The position numbers and the translations under genes were made by a program. From the IMG/VR virus record IMGVR_UViG_3300030433_001707, positions 1 through 39,805 of that record: a stretch of 39,805 nucleotides of DNA. One strand, written 5' to 3'. The notes under the pieces were generated by a model. That model saw nothing but the letters and a program-made list of their open reading frames with translations, was not told the origin of the DNA and searched no databases. The stretch's first letter is position 1. Every line of letters starts with the position of its first letter. The stretch is from a virus. Its lineage: Duplodnaviria > Caudoviricetes. Below, in pieces: positions 5,029 to 30,740 of this stretch.

Positions 5029-5226
5029 CTACTTAGCTTGTTTCAAAATGCTTTTCTCGTTGTGATACGCCCCTTTCTGATACATCTCAGTCACATCTCG
5101 CACCCAGGGCACAAGCCAGTCATTGACCCGTGAGCACTGATCCCAGTTCACAGGCTTGGCACACTGCACAACAACAGTGGTCCAGAAAGCACTGATATAC
5201 GCCCACACCCAGTAGAAGCTACTCAT
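5029..5226 (-). CDS. Small membrane-anchored hypothetical protein
   Basis: Hydrophobic aromatic N-terminus followed by a Cys pair (QCAKPVNWDQC); start overlaps the endolysin 3' end. Confidence 0.65.
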   Translation of the reverse strand: MSSFYWVWAYISAFWTTVVVQCAKPVNWDQCSRVNDWLVPWVRDVTEMYQKGAYHNEKSILKQAK

Positions 5227-5962
5227 TAACGAGAATCACCCAACCAGTCCCAGGGCCTTCAGATTGCCAGCGCTGATAGAACGCAGCTTGCCTCACACGG
5301 ACATTACGTCCCAGATGCGGATTGCTATGGCCGCCCTTCTCCATTTCGGGATAACCCCTTGGATCTTGCATGATCCACTCTGGGTCGTTGCTGTTCTTGC
5401 CTGCGTAACCGCTGATAACGCTCCAATGACCGCAACCCATCCCATTACACATTGGTGGCTCGCCCAGAAGCATGTTTCCTGCGTGCAACCAGCCAACCAG
5501 CACTGGCCTGCCAGCTTCAATCTCTAGCTCCACCATGTCAGCGTCACCGTCCTTGCGGAACTCAGCTTCCAGACCCAAGCTCCTTAACGCTGCCAGCTGA
5601 GCATCTACTGAAGTGGTGTCCCCGAACTTGGCGCGGATCTTGTTGTATTCATCATCCGTCCGAACTTTCTTGTAAAACGCTGCCACCATCGCAGCTGCTG
5701 AGCTGAAACACTCTCGGTATCCCGTTCCAGTCTTATTGTCGAGCTGCTTGAAGTAAGGCATGAAGACCTGCTGGTCATAGCCGCTTTCCTTCCAAGCCTG
5801 AAACCAGTCGGCTTCCTCCGCCAGTAACTCCTCTGGCACTGACTCCTCAAGCTCCTTAATTGCAGCCAGCTGATGGGGCGTACCACGGAAAAACTCGAAG
5901 AATGGCAGAAGAGAAAGGCCCACGCCAAGCAACAGCAAGGTCAACTGGATGATGCCCGACAA
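5219..5962 (-). CDS. Endolysin candidate, peptidase C39-like (papain fold)
   Basis: PYFKQLDN...RECFSSAAAM (catalytic Cys), GHWSVISGY (His), QDPRG (Asp). Next to holin-like genes. Start uncertain (TTG 5962 or a later GTG). Confidence 0.75.
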   Translation of the reverse strand: MSGIIQLTLLLLGVGLSLLPFFEFFRGTPHQLAAIKELEESVPEELLAEEADWFQAWKESGYDQQVFMPYFKQLDNKTGTGYRECFSSAAAMVAAFYKKVRTDDEYNKIRAKFGDTTSVDAQLAALRSLGLEAEFRKDGDADMVELEIEAGRPVLVGWLHAGNMLLGEPPMCNGMGCGHWSVISGYAGKNSNDPEWIMQDPRGYPEMEKGGHSNPHLGRNVRVRQAAFYQRWQSEGPGTGWVILVNE

Positions 5963-5965
5963 ACC

Positions 5966-6139
5966 CTACTTTTCAACTCTTGTGTCAGGCAAAAGCAGCT
6001 CCCGCACATGCTTTACAGCCAAATCGTCCAAGTCGTTGTCTGTCCTGGAAACAATTTTCTCCAGCATCGCCACAATCAATTCTTTGAACGCCCTTGATTT
6101 CCACATGGTCATCAAGATCGGCTTGAGAATCAAAAGCAT
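5966..6139 (-). CDS. Holin-like small protein (57 aa)
   Basis: Not in the track. MLLILKPILMTMWKSRAFKELIVAMLEKIVSRTDNDLDDLAVKHVRELL; the TDNxxDD motif is one I recall from cyanophage lysis-region proteins. Directly upstream of the lysin. Confidence 0.6.
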   Translation of the reverse strand: MLLILKPILMTMWKSRAFKELIVAMLEKIVSRTDNDLDDLAVKHVRELLLPDTRVEK

Positions 6140-6166
6140 GGGACTACCTTGAATAGCACTAATACG

Positions 6167-6418
6167 TTAGTGCCTATCACTGTGTCCTTCCAGTCGTGCC
6201 ACTGCACGCTCCAATTCACTCAATCTGCCAAAGACCTCAACATCTTTGCTCCTGATGTCTTGGTGCAAAATGTCGAGCCTGCTGGACAAATTATCAACAG
6301 CAGTCGTCAGTCGAATCAACGAATCCTGCCCATGGCGTGTCTGGCGATTGATGCCTGAAACGCCTAAACCAGCAACTGTGATTGACGCGCCAGCAACGGC
6401 GGCCCAGACTTCAACCAT
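6167..6418 (-). CDS. N-terminal TM plus coiled-coil protein (holin/XhlA-like)
   Basis: ATG 6418: MVEVWAAVAGASITVAGLGV, then heptads ending RLSELERAVARLEG. Confidence 0.65.
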   Translation of the reverse strand: MVEVWAAVAGASITVAGLGVSGINRQTRHGQDSLIRLTTAVDNLSSRLDILHQDIRSKDVEVFGRLSELERAVARLEGHSDRH

Positions 6419-6442
6419 GACCTGACCGCAACTCGTCTCATC

Positions 6443-6712
6443 ATGGCAGAGCCCAAGGAAACGCAAAGCCAAGAACAAGAGGATGGGAACTCTCGTCTAG
6501 GCGATGTCGTCAAGATCGTTCTGCTCGGCTGGGCTATGGCGATCCTCACTGCCAACTACCTTGGCGTTTTCAAGCAATCACTTGATCCGACTTACCCAGC
6601 CTCGATCCTTTCTGGAACGGCGGCATCGTTCGGTTTGGCGGTTGGCAACAATAGGAAGAAAAAAGAGGACACTACAATTAAGGAACAACCCTCCACCTCC
6701 AAACCAAAATGA
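6443..6712 (+). CDS. Two-TM inner-membrane protein
   Basis: VVKIVLLGWAMAILTANYL and DPTYPASILSGTAASFGLAV hydrophobic segments with a basic C-tail. Confidence 0.75.
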   Translation: MAEPKETQSQEQEDGNSRLGDVVKIVLLGWAMAILTANYLGVFKQSLDPTYPASILSGTAASFGLAVGNNRKKKEDTTIKEQPSTSKPK

Positions 6713-7203
6713 AACGCTCGCTTTTGGTATTGGGAATCACACTGTTAGCCGCTCCAGCTCAGGCTGACATTACGCATAAAATTCAATCCAGCGTTTCCCT
6801 GTCTGTCGATGGAGCCGGATCAGTCGCAACGCGCATCCCGTCTTCAATGGCAGTATCTGGCAATAACGTCACTCTGGACACTACTCCTGCTCTGGGGTCA
6901 TTCACTTCCGGGACTGCTCTTGGGTACACTCCTGGCGCTTTCAGCATTACTACTGCTGGTGACGCATTTTCGTATTCAGAGTCATATCAAGAGGGAGATG
7001 ACGTCCCAACAGTCCTCTCAACCACAGTCACCTCAGGAGTAGTTCCTGCATTGCCGATCTTTGGCAACACAACCACAACTTCTGGTGGAGTTGCTGGCAG
7101 CCTTGCAGGCACAGTCGCAACCGATGGTGCTCTGACGATTACAGCTGGCGGTGCTGGTACTCAAGCTGTCGGACAAGTCATCCAAGAGCTGACAATCAAG
7201 TGA
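6709..7203 (+). CDS. Secreted beta-rich protein (Sec signal peptide)
   Basis: MKRSLLVLGITLLAAPAQA-D signal with AxA cleavage; mature part is T/S/G/V-rich; ATGA overlap with the upstream gene. Confidence 0.8.
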   Translation: MKRSLLVLGITLLAAPAQADITHKIQSSVSLSVDGAGSVATRIPSSMAVSGNNVTLDTTPALGSFTSGTALGYTPGAFSITTAGDAFSYSESYQEGDDVPTVLSTTVTSGVVPALPIFGNTTTTSGGVAGSLAGTVATDGALTITAGGAGTQAVGQVIQELTIK

Positions 7204-7649
7204 TGTGGACTGGAATTTGGGTTGCATACGGCGCTCTTTGCGCCATTGCTCTTGCCGCTCCAGAAGCTAAGGCCATCCCTGTTGTCCCAAACTTTCAACA
7301 GGGCACCCTTCGCTCCACAACAAAAACCAAAACCAAGGTCAATGAGGTCATCAACTCTTACGAGTATCGGACTGGTTACGAATACGCTGCTTCTGGCACG
7401 AATGTATCGACCAACGGTCCTATCGCTCCAATGAGCCTGACCACAACCACTAATTCGCTCAATGGTGTCACTAGCGTTTGGCGCGGTCTTGATCCAGCTC
7501 AAAAGCCTGCCTGGAATATCGTCAATGAAGGCGCTAGCTTCCAGTTCGTTGAAACTCTGTCAGGCCCAGGTTTGGTGAATCACACCGTCATCAAACGGGA
7601 CACCGACATTGAATCACTGACCGAAACGCTGAGCACCTTCACTCAATGA
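7200..7649 (+). CDS. Secreted protein (signal peptide, VPNF motif)
   Basis: Hydrophobic N-terminus ending AKA-IPVVPNFQQG; alternating Thr strands at both termini; coupled overlaps with both neighbours. Confidence 0.8.
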   Translation: MMWTGIWVAYGALCAIALAAPEAKAIPVVPNFQQGTLRSTTKTKTKVNEVINSYEYRTGYEYAASGTNVSTNGPIAPMSLTTTTNSLNGVTSVWRGLDPAQKPAWNIVNEGASFQFVETLSGPGLVNHTVIKRDTDIESLTETLSTFTQ

Positions 7650-8353
7650 AGCGAGTCATAGCAACGCTTTTGCTGCTTTCCGCTCCAGCACAAGCACAGG
7701 TTTCAAGCACCGCCGCTCCAGTGGCAAACAGCTCTGGAAGTGTGACGAATCAGGCTGTGCAAGTGGTGCCAAGCAGGCAATTTACCAATACATACGGTGG
7801 AGGAATCAGCTGCCAAGGAACAACGCTAAACATCAACCCGTTCATAAGCTCTACAACCAGCTGGGCTGATCCGTATGAAGCAAGTTACAACGAGCCGGTT
7901 TATGACACGCTCGATATTGTTGGCGCGTTTGATTCGGAAGGCAATCCCATCCCAGATGGCAGGCCCGATAATCCGGGCAATGTCCTTTTCTATAAACCTA
8001 TTCGTACAGGCCAAAAGACCAACTTCTCCATTAACGGCGGAATCACTGCCACAATCTCGGTGCCGCTAGACCGCAGTCACATCCGTTCGTGCCAGAAAGC
8101 AGCTGAAAAACAAGTTGCCCTGCTCGATGCAGCTTTGGCAGACAAGCGCCTTAACTACGAGCTTGCCAGGCTTAAAAACTGCGCGGAATTGATGCAGAAG
8201 GGCATCATGTTCCACCCAGAATCGCCTTACGCCAAAATCTGCGCTGATGTCACCCTGACCAATCCGCCTGGCGTCATCCCGCCCCACATCCATTCCATCA
8301 CTTCCGCAAAGACCGCTGAAACTTCCGGCGCTGCCAAACAGACTCAACCTTAG
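7646..8353 (+). CDS. Secreted protein with beta-hairpin and long helix, four Cys
   Basis: MKRVIATLLLLSAPAQA-Q signal; GGGISCQG; GITATISVPLD followed by a long helix; ATGA overlap. Confidence 0.8.
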   Translation: MKRVIATLLLLSAPAQAQVSSTAAPVANSSGSVTNQAVQVVPSRQFTNTYGGGISCQGTTLNINPFISSTTSWADPYEASYNEPVYDTLDIVGAFDSEGNPIPDGRPDNPGNVLFYKPIRTGQKTNFSINGGITATISVPLDRSHIRSCQKAAEKQVALLDAALADKRLNYELARLKNCAELMQKGIMFHPESPYAKICADVTLTNPPGVIPPHIHSITSAKTAETSGAAKQTQP

Positions 8354-9059
8354 TTTTCTTCCCCAGCTTCTCCTTGATCTTCTTGATCGCCTTCTTGACC
8401 GTAGGCTTGACTGCTTTGAGCAGAAAATCGCCTAACGGTTTGGCGAAGATGGCAGCCGTCGTCGCCACAGCCGCAATCGTCGCAGTCGTTGTGACAATAG
8501 GCGCACCAGGAAGATAATTCCCGATGATGCTTGGTATTCCAAGCGGCTCATAGATCGCCTCGCACTTACCGTCATCAGTTCTTTCGTAACCAATGATGAC
8601 AGCTGTTTGCGATTTGTTTTTAGCACCTAAAGGAATTGCGTCAGGTGGAGGACATGGCAATTCCGTGACTACCTTTGAGATGTCAGGAACGCCACCTGAT
8701 GCCAAGGGAGACTTCGGCGGCTGGTTGCCAAGGTCAGCCGCTTTTTCTGTGTCTAAATCAAGTGCTGGAACCTTTGCTGCTCCAGGGGGCAAAATCCCAG
8801 GCGTAAAATCAGGCGCATTGAACGAAGGCATCTCCGCTCCACACACAACGATGTTGCCTCGTGGATCATCGGTGTAAGCACTTTCGTTTCCAGGTTGTGC
8901 GTTTCGTGTCTCGACACAACCCGGTATGTTTGCCACCGGAAAGCCAAGATCCAACGTCACTGGCGGAGCTTCCGGAATACTCTGTGGTGGCATTGCACGC
9001 CATGCAGGAATCTCTGGAACGGAGATACCTTGCACCCCAATCTCAGGAATTTCAGGCAT
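8298..9059 (-). CDS. Pro-rich membrane protein with C-terminal TM and basic tail (253 aa)
   Basis: Probable start MPEIPEIG at 9059; two Cys pairs; TM IVTTTATIAAVATTAAIFA; Lys/Arg-rich C-terminus. Confidence 0.75.
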   Translation of the reverse strand: MPEIPEIGVQGISVPEIPAWRAMPPQSIPEAPPVTLDLGFPVANIPGCVETRNAQPGNESAYTDDPRGNIVVCGAEMPSFNAPDFTPGILPPGAAKVPALDLDTEKAADLGNQPPKSPLASGGVPDISKVVTELPCPPPDAIPLGAKNKSQTAVIIGYERTDDGKCEAIYEPLGIPSIIGNYLPGAPIVTTTATIAAVATTAAIFAKPLGDFLLKAVKPTVKKAIKKIKEKLGKKTKVESVWQRRKFQRSLRK

Positions 9060-9378
9060 GAAGTCAGAACGGTTTACAGCAGGCAAAGAGCTTTGGATTG
9101 AGCGCAACCGCAGAAGGGAAGGCCCGCCTGTTGTTTACACCGTAATGTCAGGCAAAACAGCAAGACTGTTCACCGACCCAAAAGCCATCCTCAAATTCGT
9201 TAAGTGGCCAAAGAGCACTCCAACTGGTGACGCTCTACGCGAATGGCTCAAATCCTTTGAGGAAAAACCACAAACACCCGCGCCAGAACTTGATATGGCA
9301 AAAATCAAGGCTGAAGGCTTCGGACCGGAAGCACATGACGATGATGACCCAACTGCCAACACCAAGATGGTGACTTAA
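9058..9378 (+). CDS. Hypothetical protein (106 aa)
   Basis: ATG 9058: MKSERFTAGKELWIER. Fills the gap between two minus-strand genes. Confidence 0.65.
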   Translation: MKSERFTAGKELWIERNRRREGPPVVYTVMSGKTARLFTDPKAILKFVKWPKSTPTGDALREWLKSFEEKPQTPAPELDMAKIKAEGFGPEAHDDDDPTANTKMVT

Positions 9379-9599
9379 GAGCTGAGCTTGTCGATGGCGC
9401 GGTTCAAATACCAAGCAGCCTTCTGCAGATCTTGCATTGTGTTGCCTTTATGCCAAGCCCTCAGCAAATACTTCAACGTCTGGCCAACCAGATAGCCGGT
9501 TACAGCGTCAGGCGCTCCAGCAACAACATCCTCAATCACTTCGATCGCTTCGACGCGACCTTGTTTGTAGTGGGACGGATGATTGACCTGATCGCTCAT
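9375..9599 (-). CDS. DUF3310 protein (T7 gp1.7-like nucleotide kinase family)
   Basis: DQVNHPSHY..G.VEAIEVI...GQTLKYLLRAWHKG...DLQKAAWYL signature. Confidence 0.9.
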   Translation of the reverse strand: MSDQVNHPSHYKQGRVEAIEVIEDVVAGAPDAVTGYLVGQTLKYLLRAWHKGNTMQDLQKAAWYLNRAIDKLSS

Positions 9600-9829
9600 G
9601 GAAGCTTGATTGGCAGAGCCGGGCCGGTAGTAGTTGGCAACTCTGGCATCACCTCGTCAATCTGACCAGGGATCATCTCAGTGATCATTCCAGTCAGCTC
9701 ACCCTTCAGTTCATTGACGTAATGCTTGGTCAATGATGGGATACGCGTGTAAAGCGCCACCGTTCCAAACACCATGCTCGCTGACATCACGAAGGATGCG
9801 GCGGACATCACATTGAAGATCCTTTGCAT
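9596..9829 (-). CDS. N-terminal TM protein with Pro-rich C-terminus
   Basis: MQRIFNVMSAASFVMSASMVFGTVALY TM segment; PELPTTTGPALP end. Confidence 0.75.
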   Translation of the reverse strand: MQRIFNVMSAASFVMSASMVFGTVALYTRIPSLTKHYVNELKGELTGMITEMIPGQIDEVMPELPTTTGPALPIKLP

Positions 9830-9834
9830 AGCAA

Positions 9835-9872
9835 GAAAAAACCCCCTCCTGCTGTGTGAGACCAGGAGAGGG
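9835..9872 (-). terminator. Intrinsic terminator after the outer-membrane protein gene
   Basis: Minus strand CCCTCTCCTG-loop-CAGGAGGGGG followed by TTTTTTC. Confidence 0.7.
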
Positions 9873-9898
9873 CAGTATGGCGTCAGCTACAAATTAGC

Positions 9899-10261
9899 TC
9901 AAAAGCTGTACTTCATGCCAAGTTTGGTTCCAACTGAAAACTCATCGCCAGTGATGCCGCTGAGTTCTCCGTAGACGCTGACGCTATCGGCAACAGCGAC
10001 AGAGCCGCCAAACTTGCCAGCAAATTCGACTTCCTGATCTTCACCGTCAGGCATGACGATTGCAGGACCGCCTTGGATGTAATAGCTGTAGGCGCCAGAG
10101 CCACCTTCATAACCAACATCCAGGTTCAGCGTTCCACCAAGCCAATCGTCGCCATAAGCGCCGCCATTGAACTCAGGGTTCACATAAACGTCTGCGAGAG
10201 CAGGAGATGCCAGCGCAGCTGCTGAAACGGCGACACCACTCGCAATGAGAGTTTTGATCAT
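9899..10261 (-). CDS. Small outer-membrane beta-barrel protein
   Basis: Signal peptide ending PALA-D; amphipathic strands (LNLDVGYEG, YSYYIQGG, VSVYGELSG); C-terminal KYSF BAM signal. Confidence 0.8.
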   Translation of the reverse strand: MIKTLIASGVAVSAAALASPALADVYVNPEFNGGAYGDDWLGGTLNLDVGYEGGSGAYSYYIQGGPAIVMPDGEDQEVEFAGKFGGSVAVADSVSVYGELSGITGDEFSVGTKLGMKYSF

Positions 10262-14614: not shown

Positions 14615-15481
14615 TCATTGGTGTTCCAGAGCGATTGCGTCGGCTACGCCCTGCTCTAACAGCAGTTCATCTGTTGTTTCCTGCAGCAGCTTGCCTGGCG
14701 TCTCAAGGTTCATCCGCAACTGGATCGTTCCAGTGCTAATGAAATCTGCTTGGATCTGCACCGTGTTGTCTGGAGCGAACTGAACAGCGCAACCAGTCAA
14801 AACTCCAGTGAACTCATAAAAAACCTCGTCGTTATCGTTAGCAGCTGCTCCACCAGGATTGTGAGTTGTGCGCTTGATATAAAAACGAGCCTTAAATTGA
14901 CTGCCGACCCGAGTGCGTAATGACAACTCGACAAGATAATTTGGCAGCTCTTGGCTGGTGTTACCTGTATATTCCCAGAAACAAGACATCCGGCCTGAAC
15001 CAGACATCAAGGTGCTGATCCTGCTGCGAAACTCCTCAGACAGAGCAGTCGTGTCTACCGTTTCACGTTCTGTGTTCAGCTCAAATCCGTTGACTTGCGC
15101 CAGCACCAAGTAACTAGCATTCTCAACGCGAACTCGAATGGGCAGATCATTTCCAGGCGTAGCAAGCGTAGTGGCGTTTGCCGTTCCACCATTCACTGCA
15201 TTAGCAAAAGAGTCGTAAAGCCTGATGCCGTCTAGCTCGTCAACGTGAATAAACTTCTTGACGCTAGTTTTTGTGTAGCTGTCGATGAAATCAAGCGCCG
15301 TTCCATCGGTGCTCGTAATCTCAATCTGATCGCCACTAATTAGCTGGCCGTGCTCAAAGTCAAAGCTAAAACGCTTGGCTGTGGCATTAACGTCTGACGG
15401 ATTGATCGTAGACCTCAGTTCACCACCATCAAACTGCCGTTGCAGTTCGATCTCTCCAAACGTGCCAAGATAAACACTCAT
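14615..15481 (-). CDS. Tail protein with a tail-tube-like C-terminal domain
   Basis: LAQVNGFELNTERETVDTTAL...SGSG motif shared with the 15478 and 30318 proteins. Confidence 0.7.
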   Translation of the reverse strand: MSVYLGTFGEIELQRQFDGGELRSTINPSDVNATAKRFSFDFEHGQLISGDQIEITSTDGTALDFIDSYTKTSVKKFIHVDELDGIRLYDSFANAVNGGTANATTLATPGNDLPIRVRVENASYLVLAQVNGFELNTERETVDTTALSEEFRSRISTLMSGSGRMSCFWEYTGNTSQELPNYLVELSLRTRVGSQFKARFYIKRTTHNPGGAAANDNDEVFYEFTGVLTGCAVQFAPDNTVQIQADFISTGTIQLRMNLETPGKLLQETTDELLLEQGVADAIALEHQ

Positions 15482-15912
15482 GAGATCGTAACGGTAGACA
15501 GCTCTCCAGTTCCCTGGAACGCAATCTCAGCTCGCACAATATCGCCAGTTGTCGCTCCAATAGACGCACTGGTGATATAAGCCGTCAGCTTGATGTCGTT
15601 GTTATCCGTTCCATCAACCCAACGGAAGGTCAGCTCAACCGTATCCGTGCTGCTAACACCAGTAGAACCAGTCTTGTAGAGCTTGTTCAGCAGGTTGGTT
15701 GTGTTAATGCTGTTGCTGTCATCCTTGTAGTACAGCAACGTGGCACTGCCGCTATAACCAGACACTCCAGGTGTATAGCTGCGAATGTTATCGCTCAGCG
15801 TTGTAACTTCAAGCGTTTCTAAATTTGCCGACAGCTGAAAGTTGACGACCTTGGCAAGGGTCGTCCCAGCAAGCTGCATTACGCCATCTCTGCCGGTGTA
15901 GACCTTTGCCAT
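15478..15912 (-). CDS. Tail-tube-like minor tail protein
   Basis: YTGRDG...LAKVVNFQLSANLETLEVTTL...SGSATLLY. Confidence 0.75.
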   Translation of the reverse strand: MAKVYTGRDGVMQLAGTTLAKVVNFQLSANLETLEVTTLSDNIRSYTPGVSGYSGSATLLYYKDDSNSINTTNLLNKLYKTGSTGVSSTDTVELTFRWVDGTDNNDIKLTAYITSASIGATTGDIVRAEIAFQGTGELSTVTIS

Positions 15913-30317: not shown

Positions 30318-30740
30318 TTATTGAAGGTTAGAGGTGATAGCGCCGCTGGTGACGAAGTTGCAAGTGGCAACAACCAGATCACCCACGGTGGAGCTGATGT
30401 CCATGCTGGTGATGATGCCTGCAAAGCTCACGCTGTCAGAACCAGAAGTCGTGCCGGTTGTAAACAGCTCAAACGTGGCGTCTGCAGTGTCCGAAGCCGT
30501 AATTACGTCTTCAATAAAAGCTGCTTGACCCGTTGCGTCTGGATCGTAAACCAGCTCAACTGTGCCAGAACCTGAAATCAGGCTGCCGACAAATGCACGA
30601 GTGGTGTCACCGTGGTCGGTAACATCCAGCGTGTCTTTGGTGATGTTCAGCGTCCAGCTGCGAGTACCAACGATGGTTGCGTTGGAAGAACCAGCAGCAT
30701 CAAACTGAACGGCACCCTGCTCTCCGCGAAGGATGGCCAT
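30318..30740 (-). CDS. Major tail tube protein (probable)
   Basis: RSWTLNITKDTLDVTD...SGSGTVEL...FAGIITS...FVTSG tube-protein pattern; codon bias like the MCP gene. Confidence 0.75.
   Translation of the reverse strand: MAILRGEQGAVQFDAAGSSNATIVGTRSWTLNITKDTLDVTDHGDTTRAFVGSLISGSGTVELVYDPDATGQAAFIEDVITASDTADATFELFTTGTTSGSDSVSFAGIITSMDISSTVGDLVVATCNFVTSGAITSNLQ

Follow-up and report, generated by a model that had tools for sequence, protein, structure and literature searches.

A conserved gene module of cyanophages was analysed in the IMG/VR virus record IMGVR_UViG_3300030433_001707, a near-complete 39.8 kb record (39,805 nt, hereafter the window) with head and tail genes of siphovirus type. All seven open reading frames (ORFs) that an earlier note, made from the sequence alone, had placed between positions 6,443 and 10,261 were found to be present, and are labelled A to G here. 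Genes A to E form a conserved cyanophage module, its genes real and travelling together among T4-like, T7-like and long-tailed phages that infect picocyanobacteria of oceans and lakes. Profile comparisons indicate that this module is related to a patchily distributed, hitherto undescribed operon of cyanobacterial chromosomes. The explanation that we favour, held tentatively and at somewhat less than even confidence, is that the module is a host-derived system for exporting a fibre or tube onto the surface of the infected cell, with protein D as its outer-membrane ring.

Genes A, B, C and D lie on the plus strand with stop and start codons overlapping from gene to gene, including ATGA overlaps at 6709 (B) and 7646 (D). 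Gene A (6443..6712; DUF6450 in Pfam, phrog_721) belongs to the core of the phage module and encodes a small inner-membrane protein of holin-like size and shape, and B (6709..7203; phrog_564, Syn9 gp167, T4-GC237, 'OMP1' in some GenBank notes) encodes an exported Ser/Thr/Gly-rich beta protein. The product of C (7200..7649; DUF6322 in Pfam, phrog_650, Syn9 gp166) is an exported beta protein and a likely fibre or tube subunit, while that of D (7646..8353; phrog_848/1755, Syn9 gp165) is exported and is a likely outer-membrane ring subunit. C likely starts at ATG 7203, overlapping the upstream TGA, and the ESM Atlas holds the same form. Genes E, F and G are on the minus strand, convergent with the A–D operon. 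E (8298..9107; phrog_570, Syn9 gp164) overlaps the 3′ end of D by 56 nt, probably has its true start near 9059 (MPEIPEI) and encodes a likely inner-membrane anchored spacer. F (9596..9829; phrog_568) is a small accessory gene of sipho- and myovirus loci only, and G (9899..10261; PF24653, phrog_417) encodes the cyanophage half-barrel outer-membrane protein (OMP), a known family. The module PHROG families (721, 564, 650, 848/1755, 570, 417) are all large and of unknown function; phrog_568 carries the unconfirmed label 'plasmid stability'.

A tblastn search with D returned 439 phage records, with names beginning Synechococcus (309), Cyanophage (80), Prochlorococcus (37), Marine (10) or uncultured (3). 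As all of the D-bearing records are by name cyanobacterial, marine or uncultured phages, D tracks the host and not the virion type; the T4-like Syn9 (B, C, D and E being gp167-164) and the T7-like P-SSP7 and KBS-P-1A are among them. Approximately 475 viral loci were gathered with six different D queries (best 80 per query) and divided into groups named by query, without individual verification of the viruses. Co-occurrence was counted in loci with at least 3 kb on either side of D (sipho, 23; Syn9-type myo, 30; freshwater-myo, 23 and 28; podo, 18 and 12). C and E lay beside D in every locus of the six groups (23/23, 30/30, 23/23, 28/28, 18/18 and 12/12), the linkage of E, which has a short form in podoviruses, depending on an iterated E profile since phrog_570 itself missed that form. 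A was beside D in 23/23, 27/30, 23/23, 25/28, 18/18 and 12/12 loci, B was present in every sipho- and myo-type locus and in none of the podovirus loci (0/18 and 0/12), and F was present in most sipho- and myo-type loci. The co-occurrence across cyanophages on which the earlier note had staked its proposal was therefore found for A, C, D and E in all six groups, far beyond chance across the sipho-, myo- and podovirus types. Gene order was reshuffled between groups (A-B-C-D/E-F, B-C-D/E-F-A or E-A-C-D), with C always ahead of D.

The genes are also lost together. When five chosen records were searched over the whole genome, three of them, S-PM2, Syn5 (which we take to be a fast, virulent clade A phage, P-SSP7 presumably being of clade B) and S-CRM01, had none of A, C, D and E, and A, C and D were recovered in both positive-control records. 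According to the available part of PMC3037559, nine near-core genes, which may include genes of the module, are missing solely from S-PM2. The module was also seen, with 18 further ORFs matching viral loci, on a 188 kb contig of a Nonlabens isolate assembly, probably a co-assembled cyanomyovirus.

Relatives of D are also found in cyanobacterial chromosomes. The phage D profile matched 4 of 400 cyanobacterial-phylum genomes besides the centre genome (E 1e-8 to 1e-11), and cellular D profiles matched 9/401 and then 11/401, of which the weakest (L619) was spurious, leaving about 10. A protein database yielded 238 D relatives, with Calothrix, Nostoc, Fischerella, Chlorogloeopsis, Merismopedia, Rivularia and Pleurocapsa among the source names. 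Phage and cellular D profiles aligned with an hhalign probability of 98.7 % (E 2.6e-16), and the four Cys were kept. Several cellular D loci lie on multi-megabase contigs, with housekeeping-type neighbours (judged by eye) and no more than one virus-matching ORF, and profile searches found no endolysin, A, E or F homolog nearby. Eight of the ten cellular D genes adjoin one to five Ser/Thr-rich proteins with a signal peptide (by eye), often paralogs of one another (L589:5275-9926, L591:8081-9119, L592:8069-9597, L602:6642-8324, L603:6744-8460, L605:6676-11195, L606:4818-8219 and L618:563-2037); the other two loci are interrupted by contig ends. No Pfam family was found in the cellular operon proteins scanned. 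Some of these operons have a small Cys-rich exported protein downstream, and some have LuxR- or helix-turn-helix-type genes upstream.

The C-terminus [ST]xFxQ, present in 492 of 494 phage copies of C, occurs in six of the 221 ORFs in the nine cellular stretches, each of them a neighbour of D, compared with a background of 2 in 4788 ORFs. These six neighbours belong to three cellular loci in genomes of 2.4–2.7 Mb. One cellular neighbour matches the C profile at E 3e-5 and, when 20 neighbours were compared with B and C, L589:6454-6924 alone scored clearly above 60 control ORFs (hhalign 20.9 versus at most 15.3). An unrooted tree of D (66 rows) placed 35 phage rows on one side of a long branch (97/99) from 31 cellular-type rows forming deep lineages, and the sipho-type rows joined the marine myovirus rows. 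Transfer of D from host to phage is the likely direction, and no more than likely because the tree has no root, long branches come together in it and, for 22 of the cellular-type rows, which were taken from a protein database, the genomic context was unseen. A sample of 401 proteobacterial genomes gave two matches, neither credible as cellular (one on a phage contig of the centre genome, one weak and spurious). A pattern scan of GTDB, which missed the true cellular homologs, gave 27 loci that were rejected as cellular; 24 have other ORFs matching viral loci and three are shorter than 3.5 kb, and they have the look of binned phage contigs or of infected single cells.

Sec export of B, C and D, as proposed in the earlier note, was assessed with a loose heuristic (a hydrophobic 9-mer and an AxA-like site ahead of a conserved mature motif), used without SignalP or a negative control. 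Signal peptides were indicated in 244/246 homologs of B, 429/442 of C and 434/457 of D, with a further 33 B, 19 C and 13 D homologs lacking the anchor motif and left unscored. A lipobox was almost never present in the leaders of B, C and D (2/457 for D). The coupled operon of that note was borne out by the overlapping stop and start codons and, by this heuristic, the leaders; of the two transmembrane helices that it had given to A, one is clear (residues 25–43) and the second, a Gly/Ala/Ser-rich segment, is weak, remaining under the hydropathy threshold.

B and C are paralogs (hhalign probability 93 %, E 3e-7, with profile cross-matches). Structures were modelled for monomers of C and D only. 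The C model (predicted local distance difference test, pLDDT, 85; predicted template modelling score, pTM, 0.47) is predicted to have terminal strands of 24 and 25 residues and a small beta cap, and contains no helix of four or more residues. Thr/Ser predominate in the long strands, where hydrophobic residues are few, and these strands appear unlike a membrane pore because they are largely polar, whereas the strands of D alternate cleanly. Fold matches to C were weak (best E 0.007, best Z 4.2) and all were to long strand pairs of tubes, pore stems and rings, including the collar tubes of phi29, P68 and Andhra (best E 0.007, TM 0.17–0.32). The ESM Atlas held nothing named for C, no match below E 0.16 was obtained in sequence searches of the PDB with the C and D profiles, and NCBIfam gave no match for the module. 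The proposal that B and C are beta-rich, polymer-type subunits is supported by these data. The suggested kinship of VVPNF in C to the NPNF motif of CsgF did not hold: VVPNF is present in the window, only P and F are kept across the family (PxF; PQF in podoviruses) and there is no Pfam match.

The AlphaFold2 (AF2) model of D (pLDDT 72, pTM 0.35) has an N-terminal segment that is disordered yet highly conserved. Predicted strands at residues 43–57 and 109–123 of the mature chain flank a variable insertion, and the second strand, which contains GITATISVPLD and alternates almost perfectly between hydrophobic and polar residues, is followed by a 42-residue helix (126–167). Four Cys are invariant. 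D is a single unit with a mature range of 150–235 aa, some representative matches reaching 473 aa. This predicted shape suits a protein that would give one hairpin per copy to an outer-membrane barrel, and the earlier proposal of D as an outer-membrane subunit with a hairpin and a helix is supported. Foldseek gave no match to D under E 0.27, the best Z being 4.0 and to the helix only, and in the ESM Atlas D falls in unnamed viral clusters only.

The earlier note had read D as a TolC-type half repeat. The strand followed by a long helix is reproduced in the AF2 model, and there is some likeness to TolC (PF02321): the amphipathic strand ends P-L-D-G-G (a hairpin, then PxxxGG) ahead of the helix, OEP leads the Pfam families below threshold in 25/125 homologs of D (best E 0.015), and D scored 25 in hhalign where 25 block-shuffled controls reached no more than 19.6. 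However, the hhalign probability is 12.5 % over only 46 columns, and window D has no PF02321 match at E 0.01. D is also one short unit, with four Cys but lacking a tandem repeat, whereas TolC/OEP proteins have two repeats in about 430–500 aa, and no adaptor or transporter is nearby. Membership of D in the TolC family was not supported, the likeness being a local motif only. The suggested Foldseek likeness to TolC or CsgG/F was not obtained, as none was listed for C or for the low-pTM monomer model of D, and the absence of TolC, CsgG and CT pilin from these lists does not rule them out.

E has a single transmembrane helix near the C-terminus (residues 204–222) and a basic tail, and is Pro-rich as the earlier note had described; the Cys pairs described there are present in sipho and marine-myo versions and missing from the podovirus and freshwater-myo versions shown. 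Its proposed likeness to TonB was not upheld, since the anchor of E is C-terminal, whereas TonB has an N-terminal anchor, a Pro-rich linker and a C-terminal TonB domain, and no Pfam match to E was found. F was confirmed as a membrane protein with an N-terminal transmembrane helix and a Pro-rich tail. In myoviruses an extra membrane protein lies between E and F (Syn9 gp163, T4-GC219; L001:9367-10002), with a transmembrane helix, a Gly/Ala-zipper-like C-terminus and no Pfam match; it may belong to the module as well. The outer-membrane barrel assignment of G proved correct, with a full-length match to PF24653 Phage_OMP (E 3.6e-34; 118 bits against a cut-off of 27). The accessible part of 10.64898/2026.10.24.761521 describes this family (IPR056410/DUF680) as a half barrel predicted to dimerise into a 12-strand barrel. 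G was present in 23/23 sipho, 11/30, 4/23 and 1/28 myo, and 0/18 and 1/12 podo loci within the stretches covered. It is therefore an optional neighbour and not, as had been supposed, a fixed part of the module.

The T4 late promoter motif is [CT]ATAAATA. In myovirus-type loci it was found about 30 nt upstream of B (14/67, 21/65 and 9/55 loci) and of A (16/59, 7/66 and 4/59), with approximately 0.015 expected and 0 to 2 occurrences upstream of C, D or E. The motif was absent from sipho-type loci and late expression in the window phage is therefore presumed by analogy. T4-GC234-237, which correspond to E, D, C and B, do not appear in the list of virion proteins that Table S8 of PMC3037559 gives, as far as the accessible part shows; that table covers S-SM1 and Syn9 and not the window phage. 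The earlier proposal of an undescribed, conserved, non-virion envelope module is supported.

Curli, or type VIII secretion, comprises the lipoprotein pore CsgG, CsgF with its NPNF motif, the subunits CsgA/B and the LuxR-type regulator CsgD. The module resembles it in having small, paralogous, Sec-exported subunits and a putative oligomeric outer-membrane ring, and a LuxR-type gene (by eye) adjoins one cellular operon, L606. It differs in that no Pfam or NCBIfam match to any Csg protein was found, D is not a lipoprotein, the C/B subunits have no curlin repeats and are predicted to fold as a pair of long terminal strands, and the phage version adds inner-membrane proteins. The Microcystis CT pilus is, in the part of PMC12397347 available, a tube of long antiparallel strands that functions in colony formation and slower sinking, and these roles serve as a model for the purpose of the module. 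Its pilin resembles C as a small, exported, Ser/Thr-bearing cyanobacterial subunit with long antiparallel strands; it differs in having two long hairpins together with a helix-turn-helix at the C-terminus, whereas the C model has no helix (PMC12397347).

A cell-surface fibre or tube is likely because the core gene D also occurs in chromosomes beside exported beta-strand proteins, and the secretion or fibre role raised in the earlier note gains support from these homologs. A ring-type exported protein beside paralogous, long-stranded exported subunits, in a chromosome and without lysis genes, is a layout of fibre export and assembly, as in curli. On this explanation, B, C and D would be exported by Sec with cleavage of their signal peptides, and D would be stapled by disulfides in the periplasm. 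Many copies of D would set their amphipathic hairpins side by side, giving an outer-membrane beta-barrel over a periplasmic helical collar, and C (plus B where present) would pass to or dock on this ring. C and B would polymerise by pairing of their long polar terminal strands with those of neighbours, and the phage-specific membrane proteins A, E and F would link the structure to the inner membrane. Assembly would take place late in infection, and the likely benefit would be an altered virocell surface that shields the cell from grazers or competing phages, lets it sink more slowly or tethers it to hosts nearby.

Several observations weigh against an exported fibre or tube. No fibre has been seen so far, the monomer models have low pTM (0.47 and 0.35) with fold matches that are not significant, and a large surface structure built late would have little time to pay off. 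Among the cellular neighbours, 19 of 20 are near the control hhalign score, without measurable homology to B or C, and those of Nostoc type end in a different motif (HETxAGxR). Furthermore, A is holin-sized, endolysins adjoin the module in 23/23 sipho-type and in 15/23 and 13/28 freshwater-myo-type loci, and the P-SSP7 module sits between tail fibre and terminase (gp17 and gp19), where T7 keeps its lysis genes. These last three points also favour the main, though less probable, alternative, lysis without spanins, in which A would be a holin and, once the endolysin has acted, D rings, B/C stems and E/F anchors would breach the thick outer membrane of the cyanobacterium or fuse it, perhaps as a device that phages repurposed from the operon of the host. 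Two-component spanins (lambda Rz/Rz1, T7 gp18.5/18.7) pair an outer-membrane lipoprotein with an N-terminally anchored coiled coil. The module is like them in being late, envelope-located and near lysis genes, with a Pro-rich periplasmic part, and differs in having no lipoprotein, a C-terminal anchor in E, no N-terminally anchored coiled coil and no PHROG spanin match. That the window encodes no lipobox-bearing spanin pair, as the earlier note had stated, was confirmed (0 of 1391 start codons matched the lipobox pattern) and speaks for the lysis alternative, as do the T4-type promoters ahead of B and A and the pore stems among the weak fold matches of C. However, S-PM2 and Syn5, which we take to be lytic on marine Synechococcus, lack A, C, D and E, as does S-CRM01; endolysins were nearby in 0/30 Syn9-type and in 0/18 and 0/12 podovirus loci; the chromosomal homologs stand in non-prophage settings without lysis genes; and the strands of C appear too polar for a membrane pore. 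The window also has a separate, divergent probable lysis cassette outside the module (5029..6478, minus strand), which adjoins A and consists of a transmembrane coiled-coil protein (6167-6478), small protein H (5966-6139), a C39-like peptidase/PHROG endolysin (5219-5962; with a hydrophobic N-terminus in its longest ORF) and a small Cys-paired protein (5029-5226). Syn5, without the module, keeps the transmembrane coiled-coil protein gp47 and, next to it, an H homolog, gp48 (E 1e-15). The fibre and lysis explanations would become one if a host export ring was turned to lysis by the phages.

Less probable again is a closed trans-envelope conduit or plug, in which a D ring and a short C/B barrel would reach A/E and serve solute flow or bar rival phages from adsorption and DNA entry. 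The module has parts for each of the three envelope layers, and in myoviruses the half-barrel OMP and pstS frequently lie close by, according to the accessible part of 10.64898/2026.10.24.761521. On the other side, G is inconsistently linked and the cellular operons have several subunit-like paralogs, yet no detectable inner-membrane partners. Genes for exclusion and uptake usually belong to the early or middle classes, whereas the module genes carry late promoters in myoviruses. It is very improbable that the genes encode ordinary minor components of the virion or are late genes clustered by chance, as the weak matches of C to the phi29/P68/Andhra collar tubes might suggest: the signal-peptide-like leaders are conserved, the module occurs in three tail types, its genes are gained and lost jointly, chromosomal homologs exist, and the module is missing from the virion lists of Table S8 (PMC3037559, accessible part).

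Between E and F, the window also contains a DUF3310 gene (9375-9599, minus strand), DUF3310 being found in 17 of 80 sipho-type loci, and a phrog_37139 ORF (about 9057-9378, plus strand). Elsewhere in the window, three separate genes match the major tail protein families phrog_10528/1407 (within 14615-15912 and at 30318-30740, minus strand), one of them lying well away from the tail region.

No named family, solved structure or paper covering the module was found, in literature coverage mostly outside subscription journals. The accessible text of 10.64898/2026.10.24.761521 treats the family of G only, and that of PMC9381782 does not mention the module genes. New here are the cellular operons, the [ST]xFxQ ending common to phage C and cellular neighbours, and the joint absences. 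In the most abundant marine phages the module genes are near-core (D alone has 439 records, cultured or curated), and they have been unexplained hypotheticals since the first cyanophage genomes. The cellular D operons merit study in their own right and offer a phage-free route to the module; as engineered T7-like cyanophages also exist (PMC8776855, in the part available), the question is directly testable. If the lysis explanation were true, the module would supply the missing outer-membrane step for cyanophages without spanins. With slightly less confidence than we give to the export system itself, the module may represent a new class of fibre or tube secretion-and-assembly system, native to cyanobacteria, captured once by picocyanobacterial phages and spread among myo-, podo- and siphoviruses, in which case most ocean cyanophages would coat the infected cell in a phage-encoded appendage. 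Such a surface appendage would be a new viral way to alter the grazing, sinking and host encounter of infected cells.

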